Assembly: GCA_947474495.1 (NCBI GenBank)
Contig: CANJIM010000003.1
Coordinates: 8,826-72,825 of the forward strand
DNA: 64,000 nt
Reading direction: 5' to 3'
Origin: Rhodospirillaceae bacterium
Lineage (GTDB): Bacteria > Pseudomonadota > Alphaproteobacteria > SMXQ01
In this document: positions 2,602 through 9,364 of the stretch, one piece after another
How the letters are laid out: each line of letters opens with the position of its first letter
Numbering within the stretch: position 1 is the first letter of the stretch
Made by a program: the position numbers and the translations under genes
The notes under the pieces: generated by a model
Seen by the model: only the letters and a program-made list of their open reading frames with translations
The model's database searches: none
What the model was told of the DNA's origin: nothing

Positions 2602-4061
2602 ATGCGGCGATTGATGGCGATCTGGGGCGCGGCGGCCGCGCTGGCGGCGGCGAGTCCGGTTTTGGCGGACGATGGCGTGCAACTCGGCGCGACCTATCGC
2701 GGCATGGTTCAGCTGAAGACTTACGGTTCGCCGCAAGTGCCGTTGCCGCCGGGCGATTGGAAGCTGGTCGCGCTCGGCGATTCCAATAACAACACAAACA
2801 ACATTCGTGTGTTGAAGGGGCACTTCATCCAGACGGCGGGTCGCGACGGCAAGGAGATGCGCGGCCGCGTATCTTTCACCGTGACCACTTCGCCGGTGCG
2901 CGGTGATTGGACGCTGCCGGCTATTTGCAGCCGCACCGATTTCCTTGCCAACTATTCCAAGCCTGCATTGGCGAAAGGCTTTGATTGCGCATGGGTCACG
3001 GCCTATGGGCTCGTGCGTCCGAATAGAGCGACCGACGAACTCAACCAATTTTACGATTATGTCGACCAGAACAAGATCAAGAAGCCTGCAACCGTCGTCG
3101 GTGTCAGTTATTACCTTTCCGACGGCCCGACTTACTTGGCGCTGGACTATGCCTTCAATCCCGATTTGGAGGGTGTGCCGACAGCCGGGACCAGTCTGTG
3201 GCATCCCGATCGCTACAAAGAAGTTCCCAAACGCGTCAGTTATGTCGAAGTCTTGAAAACCTGGGCGCAGGAATGGCGGAGCAACGTCGCGCAGGCCTAC
3301 AAAGGAAAATTGCCGGTGTCGTTCACTGCGCCGGAGATTTTTCTGGCCATGGCCAAGACCGCGCTGCCCGCTAACGGGAAAATCGACAGCGCGTTGGCGC
3401 AGGTGGCCGAACTCGGCAAGATCTATCGCGACGTTCTCCCACTCAATGTTAAGGGGGCTCCGCAGGTACCGTTGCCGCCGGGAGATTGGAAGTTGGTTGT
3501 CCTCGGCGAAGGGCAGAGCGATAAGGAAAAAATTCGCCTCATTCGCGGCTATTTGACCCAGACCAAAGGCGATACGATTGCGGCGCGCGTTTACTTCAAC
3601 GTGCCCGATGGGCAGTCCTCGATCGGTTGGGCGCCGTCCGATAATTGTACGCGTAAGGATCCCATTGCAGATTTTTCGACCAATCGCGGCGGCTCAGGCA
3701 AGCCTTACGATTGCACTGTAATCACGGCTTATCCGATGGCGCGGCCGAAAAACGGAATGCCGCAGCTCATGCAGTTCCATGACTACCTAGATGTTAACGG
3801 CATCAAACGCCCGGTGGCGATGATCACTGTCGGTTACGGCCTGTCGAACGGCAAAAATTCGTGACAGCCGAATATGCCTTCAATCCAGAATTAGAAGGCG
3901 TGCGCGCTGAAACGACTGCCGCCTGGCAGCCGGATCGGTACGCTGACGATTCACGCCGTGGTGCTTACATAGCAAAAATGAAAAGCTGGGCGGAGGCGTG
4001 GCACACCAAAGTCGATGCGGGGTTCAGAGCTAGTTTGCCAAGGACGGCCGCCGTCAACTGA
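2602..4061 (+). pseudogene. Secreted protein with two tandem copies of an unknown domain, split by a frameshift at about 3853-3857 (ORFs 2602..3864 and 3861..4061)
   Basis: Signal peptide MRRLMAIWGAAAALAAASPVLA. PQVPLPPGDWKLV occurs twice. The downstream ORF (EYAFNPELEG...W.PDRY...W) matches the end of repeat 1 (DYAFNPDLEG...WHPDRY...W). Could be a sequencing error rather than a true pseudogene. Confidence 0.7.
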
Positions 4062-4076
4062 CCGCCAAGTTTAATG

Positions 4077-4114
4077 AAAAAGGGCCGCTCCATTGGAGCG
4101 GCCCTTTCCGTTTT
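4077..4114. terminator. Bidirectional intrinsic terminator
   Basis: AAAAAGGGCCGCTC-CATTG-GAGCGGCCCTTT between convergent genes. Confidence 0.85.
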
Positions 4115-4128
4115 AGCGACCGTGATCG

Positions 4129-5010
4129 TTAGCGCGCGACGTAGGTCTCGCGGTAGTAGACGGCATGGCGCGTGCCGATGCAGGCGCCGATGGTCGCCAT
4201 GATGGCGCCGAGCAACAAGGCGGCGAAAGCCCAGAAGGCTCCCATCGCCGTGGCGCGCGCCGTGGCATCGGCGATTTCACGCGCCTTCTGCTCGGCATCG
4301 GCCATCGCCTGCTTGATCTGCGCTTCAGCCTGGTCGATGCGCTGACCGGCTTCCTGCTCGGAAATACCGGCCGACTTGGCGACGAGAGCGTTCAAGCGCT
4401 CGCGCGAGTTCTCCGGCCAGCTGCCATTCACCAGGCGGGAGCGCACCAGGCCGGCGACTTCGTTGGCGACCTGTTCGTTCGAGAGATTGTCGACGTTGGT
4501 GCCGCCGAGGGTGCGGCGAACCGGATCGAGCAACTGCGTCGCATCGAATTGGCTGGCCGCGCCACCCGCTGCCGCGCCGGCCGCCATGGCGGTGCCGCCG
4601 ACAGCGGCGCCGGCGCCGCGCACGGCGACGCTGGCGATGCTCGCCAGGCTGCTGGCGGCGATCGCGGTGCCGAGGAGGAGGGCGAGCGCCCAGACGGTCA
4701 GGCCATGGAGAATACCGTCTTCATTGCTGCTGGTGCCGGAGAGGCGCGCGGCGACATAACCGCCGATACCCATGGCAAGCAACGAAGCGAAAGTCGCCCA
4801 AATGCCGCCGGCGAGGCCCAGCGTGCTGGCGTCGGGCGTGCTGCGTTCCAAAGTGTCGATGGTGGTGGCGCCGACCGCGATGCCGAGGACGGAGAGCAGC
4901 GCGCCGACGGCAATGGCGACGATGGCGCCGGCGATGACGGCGCCCCAAGAGACGCGACGGAGCAGCGCCGGAGCGGCGACATCCGCCGGAGTGGTGACGA
5001 TGGTGGCCAT
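4129..5010 (-). CDS. Conserved hypothetical membrane protein, probably general-stress regulated
   Basis: RRVSWGAVIAG start, three N-terminal TM helices, helical soluble region, C-terminal TM; GGGGA RBS; EcfG-type promoter upstream. Confidence 0.8.
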   Translation of the reverse strand: MATIVTTPADVAAPALLRRVSWGAVIAGAIVAIAVGALLSVLGIAVGATTIDTLERSTPDASTLGLAGGIWATFASLLAMGIGGYVAARLSGTSSNEDGILHGLTVWALALLLGTAIAASSLASIASVAVRGAGAAVGGTAMAAGAAAGGAASQFDATQLLDPVRRTLGGTNVDNLSNEQVANEVAGLVRSRLVNGSWPENSRERLNALVAKSAGISEQEAGQRIDQAEAQIKQAMADAEQKAREIADATARATAMGAFWAFAALLLGAIMATIGACIGTRHAVYYRETYVAR

Positions 5011-5049
5011 GGTTTTATCCCCTTGAGTGAAGCCGAAAATCTCAAGGAC

Positions 5050-5074
5050 AACGCAGGCCTCGGTGATTTGTTCC
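5050..5074 (-). promoter_or_regulatory. Sigma-EcfG (sigma-T/RpoE2) general stress promoter
   Basis: Minus strand GGAAC-N16-CGTT, about 40 nt upstream of the ATG at 5010; exact alphaproteobacterial general stress consensus. Confidence 0.8.
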
Positions 5075-5129
5075 TACTTCGTGCAGATGCTGTGCGAAAT
5101 AGCCGGGAACTCAAAAGCAGTCTGATAAC

Positions 5130-5160
5130 GAAAAAGGGCGGCCCGAAGGCCGCCCTTTTC
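5130..5160 (-). terminator. glnA intrinsic terminator
   Basis: mRNA GAAAAGGGCGGCC-UUCG-GGCCGCCCUUUUUC. Confidence 0.9.
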
Positions 5161-5197
5161 CCACTCACCCCACCAACGAAGGGTTCTACAGGCGGTG

Positions 5198-6607
5198 TTA
5201 GCCGCTGTAGTACATCTGGTACTCGATCGGATGCGGCGTGTGCTCGAAGTTGTAAACGTCTTCCCACTTGAGCTCGATGTAGGCCTTGATCTGCTCTTCG
5301 GTGAAGACATCGCCCTTGGTCAGGAACGCATGGTCCTTCTCGAGGCTCTCGAGCGCCTCGCGGAGCGAGCCGCACACCTGCGGGACGTTCTTGAGTTCCT
5401 CGGGCGGCAGGTCATACAGGTTCTTGTCCATCGGGTCGCCCGGATGGATTTTGTTCTGAATGCCGTCGAGGCCGGCCATCAGCATCGCCGAGAAGGCGAG
5501 GTACGGGTTGGCCAGCGGATCGGGGAAGCGCACTTCGACGCGCTTCGCCTTGGGGCTCGTCGCGAACGGAATGCGGCAAGACGCCGAGCGGTTGCGCGCC
5601 GAGTAGGCGAGCAGCACGGGGGCTTCGAAGCCCGGGATCAGGCGCTTGTAGCTGTTGGTCGTCGGGTTCGTGAAGGCGTTGATGGCCTTCGCGTGCTTGA
5701 TGATGCCGCCGATGTAGTACAGCGCGGTCTCGGAGAGATCGGCATAGCCCGAACCGGCGAACAGCGGCTTGCCGGCCTTCCAGATCGACTGGTGGACGTG
5801 CATGCCCGAACCGTTATCGCCCTTGATCGGCTTCGGCATGAAGGTCGCCGTCTTGCCGTAGCTGTGGGCGACGTTCTTGACCACGTACTTGTAGATCATC
5901 ATGTGGTCGGCGCCGGTGACGAGCGTGTTGAACTTGCAACCCAGTTCGTTCTGCGCGGTGGCGACTTCATGGTGATGCTTTTCGACGTCGAGGCCCATTT
6001 CGAGCATCGTCGAGAGCATCTCGGCGCGGATGTCGCTGTGCGAATCAACCGGCGGGACCGGGAAGTAGCCGCCCTTGACGCCCGGACGGTGGCCCGGATT
6101 GCCTTCGGGAACGGCGCGATTGCTGGCCCACGGGCCTTCCATCGAGTCGACCGAGTAGGACACGTCGTTCATCGAGACGTTGAAGCGCACGTCGTCGAAA
6201 ATGAAGAACTCGGCTTCGGGGCCGACGAACACGGTGTCGCCGATGCCCGAGGACTTCACGTAGGCTTCTGCCTTCTTGGCGATCGAACGCGGATCGCGCG
6301 AGTAGGGCAGGCCGGTCGACGGCTCGAGAATGTCGCAGAAAATAATGAGCGACGGCTGCGCGGCGAACGGATCGATCACGGCGGTGGACAGATCGAGCTT
6401 CAGGGTCATGTCCGACTCCTGAATGCCCTTCCAGCCGGCGATCGACGAGCCGTCGAACATGAAGCCTTCGGCGAGGGTGTCCTCGTCGATGGTTTTCACA
6501 TGCTGGGCAGTGTGGTGCCACTGGCCGCGCGGGTCGGTGAAGCGGAGATCGACATACTTAATGTCGTGCTCCTTGATCATGGCCAAAATGGTTTTTGCGT
6601 CGGACAT
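5198..6607 (-). CDS. glnA: Glutamine synthetase type I
   Basis: [38 protein letters not shown], adenylylation motif [10 protein letters not shown]. Confidence 0.98.
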
Positions 6608-6723
6608 CGTCGATGATCCTGTCGTTGGTGGTTACGGGGTGGTGCTAAGGGTTAACGCGGGGTGGTGAAGCGACGGTCTCGAGCCGCACCGCCGGTCTCG
6701 CGACCGGCAAGCGGCGATTCACA

Positions 6724-7131
<408 letters not shown>

Positions 7132-7136
7132 TTACC

Positions 7137-7154
7137 TAGCACGGCCCATGCCAA
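7137..7154 (-). promoter_or_regulatory. Sigma-54 promoter of glnBA
   Basis: Minus strand TTGGCATGGGCCGTGCTA = GG-N10-GC (-24/-12), about 75 nt upstream of glnB. Confidence 0.8.
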
Positions 7155-7225
7155 ATTCCCTAGGATGGCAAAACCCTAGAAATCGGCGTTAATTCAATAA
7201 GTTGTGGATAACTCATTGGATCAAT

Positions 7226-7286
7226 TGATTAATTTATAGGCTTTATGGCGTCTTTTTGCGCTGCGAGTTTGAATAATTAATAGGCA
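7226..7286. promoter_or_regulatory. Tandem degenerate NtrC-type enhancer sites
   Basis: TGATT-AATTTAT-AGGCT (7226-7242) and TGAAT-AATTAAT-AGGCA (7270-7286), 44 bp apart in an AT-rich tract upstream of the sigma-54 site; IHF-like sequences nearby. Confidence 0.5.
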
Positions 7287-7455
7287 AGCTTGACAGAGGC
7301 CATAAAGGACCATTCCGCGGCTGTGGAAAGAAGGCCCAAAGCCCCTTGGTTCCGCCTCGAGGCTTTCCGAGAGCGCGACGCCCCGTCAGGGATGGCGCAT
7401 GGCGGATCGCTTGACGGGGTGGGGGGAGCCATCTAAACAAGCGCCCTTGCTCTGT

Positions 7456-7533
7456 GGCGGGTGTAGCTCAGTTGGTTAGAGCGCCAGATTGTGGATCTGG
7501 ATGTCGCCGGTTCAATTCCGGTCACTCGCCCCA
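7456..7533 (+). tRNA. tRNA-His(GUG) with encoded G-1 and CCA
   Basis: G-GCGGGTG...CCAGA-TTGTGGA-TCTGG...GTTCAAT...CACTCGC-C-CCA. Confidence 0.97.
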
Positions 7534-7734
7534 TTCCCCTTATTCTGATATGCTATGTTTCAGCGCCTCCTATAACGGGAATGGGTGGCTGCTAATGGTA
7601 TTCTGAACTGTCGCGTTTTTGCGTTCTCCACTAGCCTCTCCATCGCTTGAGGCAAGGGATGGACGTCGTGACGGCCACTTCCGACTTGCCCGATCTTTCG
7701 TCATGCCCCCATCGTTACGCCAAGGAGAAACTGC

Positions 7735-8349
7735 ATGAACCCGCCCGCTTCCAATCTGAAGACCGTGCCCCAGGACGTCGGCAGCGCCGCGCTCGAGGTG
7801 CTGTTGTCGCGCCGCAGCAATGCCAGCCTGTCGCTGCCCGTGCCGTCGCAAGACGAATTGAATGTGATTTTCGACACGGCGATGCGCGCCGCCGACCATG
7901 ACCGCATGCGTCCGTGGAGCTTCCATGTCCTGCGCGGTCCGGCGATCGAAAAGCTGTGGACCCTCTATGAAGCCGCGATGAAGCGCCGCGACCCGAACGT
8001 CGATCCGGCCAAGCTCCAGGGCGGTAAGATCAAGTTGATGAAGGCGCCGATGATCATCGCCGTCGGCTGCAAGATTCAGCCGGGCATGATCATGGAGATC
8101 GAGCAGCTCTTCTCGTCCGCCGCCGGCGCCATGAACATCATGAACGCCATCCATGCGCTCGGCTACGCCGGCAAGTGGGTGACCGGCGAGAACATGTACG
8201 ATCCGGAAGTGAACAAGGCCTTCGGCTACACCGCGCCGGATCGCCTCGTCGGCATCATCTATGTCGGCACCGCGACCGCCGAGGCGCCGGCCATGCCGAC
8301 GCCGAACTACCAGGACTTCGTCAAGGAATGGACCGGCCCCGTCGCCTAA
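7735..8349 (+). CDS. Nitroreductase family protein (YdjA-like)
   Basis: LLSRRS, RAADHDRMRPWSF, ALGYAGKWVTG, GIIYVGT; AGGAG RBS. Confidence 0.88.
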   Translation: MNPPASNLKTVPQDVGSAALEVLLSRRSNASLSLPVPSQDELNVIFDTAMRAADHDRMRPWSFHVLRGPAIEKLWTLYEAAMKRRDPNVDPAKLQGGKIKLMKAPMIIAVGCKIQPGMIMEIEQLFSSAAGAMNIMNAIHALGYAGKWVTGENMYDPEVNKAFGYTAPDRLVGIIYVGTATAEAPAMPTPNYQDFVKEWTGPVA

Positions 8350-8371
8350 GCGATCAGGCCGCGTCGATCCC

Positions 8372-8403
8372 AAAACGGGCAGCTTCGGCTGCCCGTTTTT
8401 TTT
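8372..8403. terminator. Intrinsic terminator, probably bidirectional
   Basis: AAAACGGGCAGC-TTCG-GCTGCCCGTTTTTTTT. Confidence 0.9.
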
Positions 8404-8422
8404 ATGCGCGTTCGAAGCCGCG

Positions 8423-9364
8423 CTAATTCAAGCGCGGCCGCTTGAGATGTTGGGCGCGGTCCGACGAGGGCACGCTGATATCGAGTTCGCGGTCCTTGCG
8501 CTGGACGCGGAACGGCACCTCGACGCCGGCGGGGCCGAGCGCCCAGATGCGGCGGTACATATCGGCCAAGCTGCGCGGCCGGGTGCCGCCGATGCCGAGA
8601 ATGGCATCGCCGACGCGCAGGCCCGATCGCTTGGCCGGGCCATTGTCGCTCATGCCGGCGATCACCAGCCTGTCCTCGGTTTCTGCCGTCCAGATGCCGA
8701 GCCAGGGGCGGGCGGGCCGGTCGACGCGGCCGAGCTTCATCATGTCCGGCAGAATGGCTTTCAGCAGATCTATGGGGATGACGAGGTTGGCGTCGATGGT
8801 GACGCCGCCGTGGGAAAACTGTTGGAAGATCAGAGAGGCAATGCCGACGAGATTGCCGTCGCGACCGATCGCGGCCGCGCCCGTCCACTGCGGATGGGCA
8901 GGCGCCGCGAAAATGGCCTGATCGAGAAGATATTCCCAGTAGCCGGCGAATTCCTGCTTGGCGATCACCCGCGAGATCACGGCCTGTTCGATACCACCGA
9001 AGGCCGCGATCACGAGCGGATCGCCCGGCATCAATTCACTGGATTTGCCGAGCGAGAGCGGCGGCCGGCCGAGCGGCTCAAGGGCTTGAACGAGGCCGAA
9101 GCCGCTTTCCTGATCTTGGCCGACGATATGGGCAGGGATGGCTTTACCGCCGGCATCGATGATCCACACGCTATCGGCTTCGGTCAGCAGGTAGCCGACC
9201 GTCACCACCAAGCCATCGCTGCCGATCACCACGCCGCTGCCGGCCCGCTCGGTGCCGAGGCGCGACGCGCTCGAGGCATCGGCCGGGACCGTGGTGCGTA
9301 GAGCAACGATGGACGGCAGGGTTTGGTCGAGATCAAAGGGCAGGTCAGTGAGACGCGGGGGCAT
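8423..9364 (-). CDS. HtrA/S1C-like trypsin-fold plus PDZ protein with degenerate catalytic residues
   Basis: GSGVVIGSDGLVVT, GNLVGI, RPWLGI, GPAKRSGLRVGDAI (PDZ); AGGAG RBS before the ATG at 9364. Confidence 0.85.
   Translation of the reverse strand: MPPRLTDLPFDLDQTLPSIVALRTTVPADASSASRLGTERAGSGVVIGSDGLVVTVGYLLTEADSVWIIDAGGKAIPAHIVGQDQESGFGLVQALEPLGRPPLSLGKSSELMPGDPLVIAAFGGIEQAVISRVIAKQEFAGYWEYLLDQAIFAAPAHPQWTGAAAIGRDGNLVGIASLIFQQFSHGGVTIDANLVIPIDLLKAILPDMMKLGRVDRPARPWLGIWTAETEDRLVIAGMSDNGPAKRSGLRVGDAILGIGGTRPRSLADMYRRIWALGPAGVEVPFRVQRKDRELDISVPSSDRAQHLKRPRLN

Follow-up and report, generated by a model that had tools for sequence, protein, structure and literature searches.

A constrained block in the glnA 3′UTR of two alphaproteobacterial genera: might glutamine synthetase mRNA limit its own translation by its 3′ end?

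Introduction

Nitrogen assimilation begins with glutamine synthetase (GS), which is among the most heavily regulated bacterial enzymes and has known layers of control at transcription, adenylylation and feedback inhibition. In Enterobacteriaceae, the glnA 3′UTR gives rise to the sRNA GlnZ, which in the accessible portion of its description represses sucA and glnP in trans and not glnA (PMC9731577). Autoregulation by RNA from a 3′UTR is known from Vibrio cholerae, in which the 3′UTR-derived sRNAs OppZ and CarZ limit their own operons and for which release by RNase E and binding to Hfq have been shown (PMC7398697, available in part). In Staphylococcus aureus, a UCCCC anti-Shine-Dalgarno motif of the icaR mRNA covers the ribosome binding site (RBS) and gives an RNase III substrate, while pairing in cis between the 5′UTR and 3′UTR of the hbs mRNA of Bacillus subtilis protects the message (both from the accessible part of PMC7821165). 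Caulobacter glnA appears, in the part of the source that is available, only among the genes lowered by RusT overexpression (PMC11005374), and our survey of the literature, supplements excluded, found no report of an alphaproteobacterial glnA 3′UTR RNA.

In this study, we followed up a candidate 3′UTR-derived feedback RNA in the glnBA operon of an uncultured freshwater alphaproteobacterium (127 contigs, 63.5% GC, seen mainly in lake-water runs). Coordinates refer to the window, i.e., the whole stretch of 64,000 nt of DNA that was analysed. The features, in the order of transcription, are:

7138..7153, minus strand: sigma-54-type promoter motif TGGCAT-N5-GTGCT, 76 nt 5′ of glnB
6724..7062, minus strand: glnB, encoding PII, 112 aa (NCBIfam NF008111, 1.6e-53)
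6683..6715, minus strand: hairpin directly 3′ of glnB, from folding, with a GCCGC...GCGGC clamp and without a U-tract
6662..6682, minus strand: leader block 1 (UCGAGACCGUCGCUUCACCA...), nearly invariant in 6/6 genus genomes
6658..6667, minus strand: CACCACCCCG copy 1, far distal site, which varies in genomes G004, G003 and G001
6635..6644, minus strand: CACCACCCCG copy 2, distal site (-37..-28), which varies in G002, G004 and G001
6622..6631, minus strand: proximal target CCACCAACGA, at -24..-15 from the AUG, followed by one C and then AGGA (6620-6617)
6617..6620, minus strand: glnA Shine-Dalgarno (SD) AGGA, 9 nt from the AUG, read from the sequence
5198..6607, minus strand: glnA, encoding type I glutamine synthetase, 469 aa (TIGR00653, 1.7e-203)
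5160..5179, minus strand: conserved G/U-rich 3′UTR block UCGUUGGUGGGGUGAGUGGG, about 20 nt, candidate seed directly 5′ of the terminator
5131..5159, minus strand: intrinsic terminator, from folding, consisting of an A-tract, a GGGCGGCC-UUCG-GGCCGCCC stem-loop and U5

The arrangement resembles OppZ and CarZ in that a candidate seed lies next to the operon's own terminator and is complementary, here in silico, to the translation initiation region (TIR) of a gene in the same transcript, with post-transcriptional negative feedback as the expected outcome. It differs in that there is no sequence relation, that it occurs in two uncultured alphaproteobacterial genera, and that the target sits just upstream of the SD of the 3′UTR-bearing gene, downstream of the co-transcribed glnB. 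As in icaR and hbs, a short 3′UTR motif is predicted to pair with the RBS region or 5′UTR of the same mRNA and, as with icaR, the motif is confined to a lineage and close relatives lack it. However, the icaR motif covers the RBS, whereas the block described here is G-rich, itself SD-like, and would pair beside the SD; the predicted duplex ends 1 nt 5′ of AGGA and excludes it, and masking of the kind seen in icaR is putative here. The hbs pairing differs in its outcome, protecting rather than repressing. The likeness to GlnZ is one of position, since both modules lie in the 3′UTR of glnA, a gene induced by nitrogen limitation, and end at an intrinsic terminator. The GlnZ seed UUGCCGUGGAAA, as given in the accessible part of PMC9731577, is absent from the 73-nt 3′UTR here, and the gene order is glnALG there versus glnBA here. 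Judged by this comparison, the block is not homologous to GlnZ, and the two are analogues rather than homologues.

Results

The glnBA Operon

The glnB-glnA spacer is 116 nt long with the hairpin at its 5′ start, and the strong terminator (5159-5131, minus strand) begins 38 nt after the glnA stop. Beyond it, on the same strand, lies a 293-aa gene without a family match, and a tRNA gene (7457-7530, plus strand; Rfam RF00005, 69.6 bits) stands opposite, 5′ of the glnB promoter region. A consensus scan of 4800-7500 found no sigma-70-like site. The motif at 7138..7153, which we take by eye to be sigma-54-type (-24/-12), recurs as TGGCAC-N5-GTGCT 5′ of glnB in G013 of the sister genus g9 (L072, minus strand, ~2210-2195), which fits control by nitrogen limitation. 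In the spacer hairpin, all five GCCGC/GCGGC clamp pairs are identical in 8/8 sequences of the source genus (g1), and almost every species has an interior of its own sequence and length. Lying between glnB and glnA, the hairpin may serve in processing, stability or attenuation. The glnA start codon is spanned by a perfect inverted repeat, CAUCG-A-CGAUG (6605-6615, minus strand), which is invariant in the genus; G013 is without it and reads GCGAACGAUG. The genome also has genes for Hfq (110 bits) and RNase E (rne).

Complementarity of the 3′UTR to the glnA Leader

The mRNA stretch UCGUUGGUGG of the block (5179..5170, minus strand) is the exact reverse complement of CCACCAACGA in the glnA leader (6631..6622). 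The original prediction was right about this 10-mer, its coordinates and a target ending 1 nt before the SD, though the letters that it assigned to the plus strand are mRNA-sense. It had added two copies of CACCACCCCG as further sites for the same seed; one lies at 6658-6667 as it had it, and the other at 6635-6644, not 6637-6646. Copy 2 can pair with GGGGUG(A)GUG of the block. Since both copies vary in about half of the genus genomes, with copy 1 lost in G004, the idea of one seed with three target sites is weak and finds no support. Its placing of a seed next to the terminator agrees with our analysis, in which a seed-like, single-stranded block adjoins an intrinsic terminator in the glnA 3′UTR, and the GlnZ precedent that it drew on is established in enterobacteria (PMC9731577, as far as the available text goes).

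The block (5160-5179) occurs once in the source genome; GUUGGUGG is a stretch of it and CCACCAAC a stretch of the glnA leader. The 3′UTR folds at -39.1 kcal/mol (z -4.7), with the block predicted to be partly paired locally in the full fold, and the terminator, though strong by folding, was missed by the consensus scan. An upstream 3′UTR hairpin that would mask the block was considered and rejected, as its stability does not exceed that of shuffles in 7/7 sequences (z -1.4 to +1.1). The leader 3′ of the spacer hairpin has few G residues, and folding predicts it to lack structure (-9 kcal/mol, z 0.19).

The usual 30S footprint takes in a 10-bp helix that ends 1 nt from the SD, which makes occlusion seem more likely than protection. 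The pairing could instead be protective or activating, with a 5′-3′ duplex that shields the leader from RNase or makes a glnA/glnB processing site and so stabilises the glnA mRNA. This would suit a target that abuts the SD without covering it and a spacer that carries a conserved hairpin and a conserved leader block just upstream, and hbs-type protection by 5′/3′-UTR pairing is established (PMC7821165, accessible part). Given where the helix ends, we nevertheless regard a protective role as very improbable.

Chance and Energy Tests

Exact complements of at least 10 nt between the 38-nt pre-terminator 3′UTR and the 136 nt of spacer plus start were obtained in 25/2000 and 19/2000 dinucleotide shuffles; mononucleotide shuffles gave them in 19/3000 and 18/3000, and shuffling only the 20-nt block against the two conserved leader parts in 29/20000. 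The block/leader match is also the only complement of at least 8 nt to the 61-nt leader within the whole 2011-nt glnBA mRNA. On the genome scale, own-3′/own-5′ complements of at least 10 nt occur in 21 of the 2340 crude gene models of the source genome (0.9%), a rate of about one chance own-end case per two 64-kb windows. The 10-nt match is more than chance locally and not so at the scale of a scan, and alone it is weak evidence.

Energy-based comparisons did not discriminate. With RNAduplex on the whole spacer, 1177/2000 and 850/2000 shuffles were as good as the native sequence. When seed duplexes were ranked over the 4915 candidate TIRs of a crude GC3-based gene finder (2430 genes in the source genome), the glnA TIR came 122nd, and 31% of composition-matched shuffled seeds (n=300) gave an equal or better cofold gain on the leader. 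Because these tests single out nothing, a G-rich block would be expected to bind a C/A-rich leader in many arrangements; what sets the pairing apart is its long contiguous helix alone.

Conservation Within the Genus

The comparison within g1 used eight sequences, namely six GTDB species genomes and two metagenome contigs, the latter being the only further loci that a metagenome scan gave with the SD and start region as anchor. All eight keep UUGGUGGGG(G)UGAGUGGG-AAAA-terminator in the glnA 3′UTR, and in the same genomes both flanks of the block are scrambled by substitutions and indels; four-fold sites of glnA differ by 8-20% within the genus. The leader core CCA(C/U)CAAC, in CCA(C/U)CAACGACAGGAUCAUCGACGAUG, is likewise kept in 8/8, and in each sequence the block matches the target in silico over 7-10 nt, or 10 nt with a G.U pair. 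A C-to-U change in three leaders leads only to a G.U pair. At the UCG end of the seed, changes in G004 (UCU) and G002 (UGG) break two to three terminal pairs with the target unchanged; in these two genomes the block also has one more G and the leader has ACCCACCACCAAC, by which ~4 more pairs become possible across a bulged A. Compensatory changes occur in the terminator stem (G004, G001), and a clean compensatory block/leader pair was found in none of the eight sequences. The pattern within the genus is compatible with selection on the pairing, short of demonstrating it. A search with a degenerate block pattern gave, among the matches listed, mostly unrelated sequences and a block behind a glnA match only in L156 and L200, whose 3′UTRs read like those of G005 and G002 and therefore add no new relatives.

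Sister Genus and the Rest of the Order

We searched all 31 genomes of the family, which at the same time make up the whole order, with a covariance model of block plus terminator (R1). Scores above 45 bits occurred only directly behind glnA, in 6/6 g1 genomes (82-88 bits) and 2/2 genomes of the sister genus g9 (G013, 50 bits; G020, 47 bits), and the next-best scores, 39.5 and 38.5 bits, fell at unrelated terminators. The second-best match in the source genome itself (G000:C6:25912-25958, minus strand, 38.5 bits) consists of UUCGUCGGUGAGACGGAAACGGGC plus a terminator behind a lysine-rich ORF, and its likeness to the model lies mostly in the terminator. These searches indicate that in two sister genera the block is a 3′UTR element under constraint and specific to glnA.

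GlnA identity in g9 is 83-87%, and the g9 block behind glnA (G013, G020) reads UUUGGGGGGAGUGAGUGAG. In G020, an insertion of ~100 nt with an inverted repeat separates the glnA stop from the block, which still adjoins the terminator. Positions ~255-350 of L059 (G020:C234) are MITE-like. The glnA of G013 (L072, G013:C2) carries a 1-nt insertion near codon 155 relative to the source gene, and the resulting frameshift is either an assembly error or the mark of a pseudogene. For G020, the 5′ end of glnBA was not found, the match obtained being glnK-amtB.

The G013 leader reads ...CACUACUCACUCGAAGCGAACCACCCAACCCUAUAGGAAC...AUG. Its ACUCACUC (-44..-37), which aligns by eye with CACCACCCC of g1, is complementary over 8 nt to GAGUGAGU of its own block, and the stretch homologous to CACCACCCCG copy 2 reads CACUACUCACUC, an 8-nt match to the g9 block. 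Relative to g1, an extra A in the g9 block faces an extra U in the leader, and at the proximal site (CCACCCAA vs UUGGGGGG) the U that pairs with A has become G, giving a mismatch. The 8-mer alone is weak, as it was reached by 214/3000 and 182/3000 shuffles. With the g9 leader, the g9 blocks share a match of 8 nt (-21 to -22 kcal/mol), and with g1 leaders one of 4 nt (-14 to -17); g1 blocks reach 6-10 nt on g1 leaders and 6 nt on the g9 leader. Block-leader specificity is reciprocal, each genus's block fitting its own leader best, in what is a single evolutionary contrast between g1 and g9 with one g9 leader (G013) and not a set of independent replicates. Cognate duplexes beat 23, 23, 22, 19 and 21 of 23 glnA leaders from other genera. 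The conservation proposed as a check in the original prediction holds to the extent that the block is constrained (8/8 in g1, 2/2 in g9) and that complementarity is kept in both genera though both partners differ; the covariation in the strict sense, a clean compensatory pair, did not appear.

Outside these genera, 25 alphaproteobacterial glnA loci showed no 3′UTR-leader pairing (cognate mean 5.84 nt vs non-cognate 5.83), which makes the arrangement a lineage-specific feature. Non-cognate controls from other genera reached at least 10 nt in 3/600 and 8 nt in 43/600. In another family, the 3′UTR of L015 (G033) has CGCUCCUC at position 27-34, complementary to GAGGAGCG at the glnA SD (leader -25); this is a single 8-nt anti-SD match, of a length common in the non-cognate controls (43/600). 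A separate, unrelated and highly conserved element, ...AAGUUGCUACUUCGAUGAGUGAGUGAGAAAAGGGGGCUUCGGCCCCCUUUU, was seen in Balneola, Gracilimonas and Balneolaceae (L094, L117, L132, L151, L160, L195, L196, L203), and it resembles a 3′UTR or the 3′ terminus of a conserved RNA.

The absence of complementarity from the 25 loci, together with the 21/2340 gene models that reach 10 nt and four-fold sites that differ by only 8-20% within the genus, gives some room to a reading in which the pairing has no function, the 10-mer belonging to the chance own-end complements (~1%) and close kinship alone keeping the block. Kinship alone fits poorly with flanks that are scrambled in the same genomes, with compensatory changes in the terminator stem, and with a block that persists in a second genus (83-87% GlnA identity) beside a 100-nt insertion, and we consider absence of function quite unlikely.

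RNA Contigs and Other Targets

Among contigs assembled from four lake metatranscriptomes, one X17 contig runs across glnB, spacer and glnA, and one contig each of X15 and X16 (two studies) ends at 5170; as the RNA data are assembled contigs only, they cannot show RNA ends, and position 5170 does not fix one. The contigs gave no cover below 5143 or above 7086. An Rfam scan of 4000-8500 with E up to 10 brought no family except tRNA to its gathering score, and weak matches to CsrC, SorX and STnc320 on 5130-5187, all below threshold, were rejected as terminator look-alikes.

Exact complements of at least 9 nt to the block number 215 genome-wide, mostly inside genes. With the crude gene finder in this one genome, seven top-ranked or motif-bearing TIR candidates were inspected; none belonged to the nitrogen regulon and one proved to be a false start. 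The candidates set aside as forming no regulon include a saccharopine-dehydrogenase-like protein, LemA, a BMFP-family protein, FabI, a Rieske protein and an ABC ATPase whose "TIR" lay inside the coding region. The glnK and amtB leaders gave no match to the block and ranked 1015th or lower. C/A-rich glnA leaders with CACCACCC-like motifs occur in distant families without the block (L009, L010), and the glnK-amtB spacer of G020 (L074, G020:C129, 1407-1465) has a G-poor, C/A-rich leader before amtB, CGCCACCACGAUCCACACCGCAUCC; nitrogen genes of this order seem often to have leaders of this sort.

These observations bear on the possibility that the block is a 3′UTR element with another job, such as a sRNA seed for other mRNAs, a protein-binding site or a 3′-end stability determinant, and that composition accounts for its fit to the leader. 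The block is clearly under constraint, the energy tests do not single out glnA, and a G/U-rich block would meet a leader poor in G and rich in C/A, as is typical of highly expressed genes, and of a kind also found before glnA in block-less families (L009, L010) and before amtB in G020. The known glnA 3′UTR sRNA, GlnZ, acts on sucA and glnP and not on glnA in the accessible text (PMC9731577). A compositional fit is harder to reconcile with block-only shuffles that reach 10 nt in just 29/20000 and with the match that each genus keeps to its own leader, and a role in trans elsewhere with the seven TIR candidates, which yielded no convincing alternative target, and with the low rank of glnK and amtB (1015th or lower). 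On balance we find another job for the block somewhat unlikely.

Discussion

The reading that we tentatively prefer, while holding it to be somewhat less likely than not, is that the conserved block base-pairs, next to the SD, with the leader of its own mRNA and lowers GS translation, in trans or in cis. It draws on direct results, i.e., the complementarity, the constraint on the block, its restriction to glnA 3′UTRs in the two genera, and the hfq and rne genes in the genome. The glnA 3′UTR would constitute a regulatory RNA module, in which a G/U-rich and largely unpaired block of ~20 nt, placed directly 5′ of the terminator, would form a two-part helix with the glnA leader, itself G-poor and predicted to be unstructured. 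The 5′ half of the block would engage the site abutting the SD (-24..-15) and the 3′ half a C-rich site ~10 nt further upstream. From this geometry we infer that pairing in cells would hinder binding of the 30S subunit, so that the damping of GS synthesis would scale with the level of its mRNA, a negative feedback on glnA that would leave glnB untouched. Pairing could occur in trans via a terminator-protected 3′ fragment, putatively a processed one like the ~65-nt RNA of the original prediction and comparable to OppZ and CarZ, or in cis within one mRNA, comparable to icaR. More tentative still is the full picture, in which the GS mRNA limits its own translation by its 3′ end, the block clamping the leader at two SD-side sites, GS being uncoupled from PII, and block and leader having co-evolved in two genera.

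If the complementarity were a chance match, it would retain value as a calibration, with ~1% of the genes in a genome of 63.5% GC carrying an own-end complement of at least 10 nt. If the regulation is real, it would plausibly be a further case of an already known kind, a self-limiting switch. It would be a rare autoregulatory 3′UTR outside Vibrio and the first post-transcriptional autoregulation described for glnA, with an origin independent of the enterobacterial GlnZ. The 3′UTRs of glnA would then have been recruited independently in alpha- and gammaproteobacteria, acting on glnA itself in the former and on sucA and glnP in the latter. For the organisms that carry the block, it would add a layer of feedback at the level of the mRNA to the control of GS.
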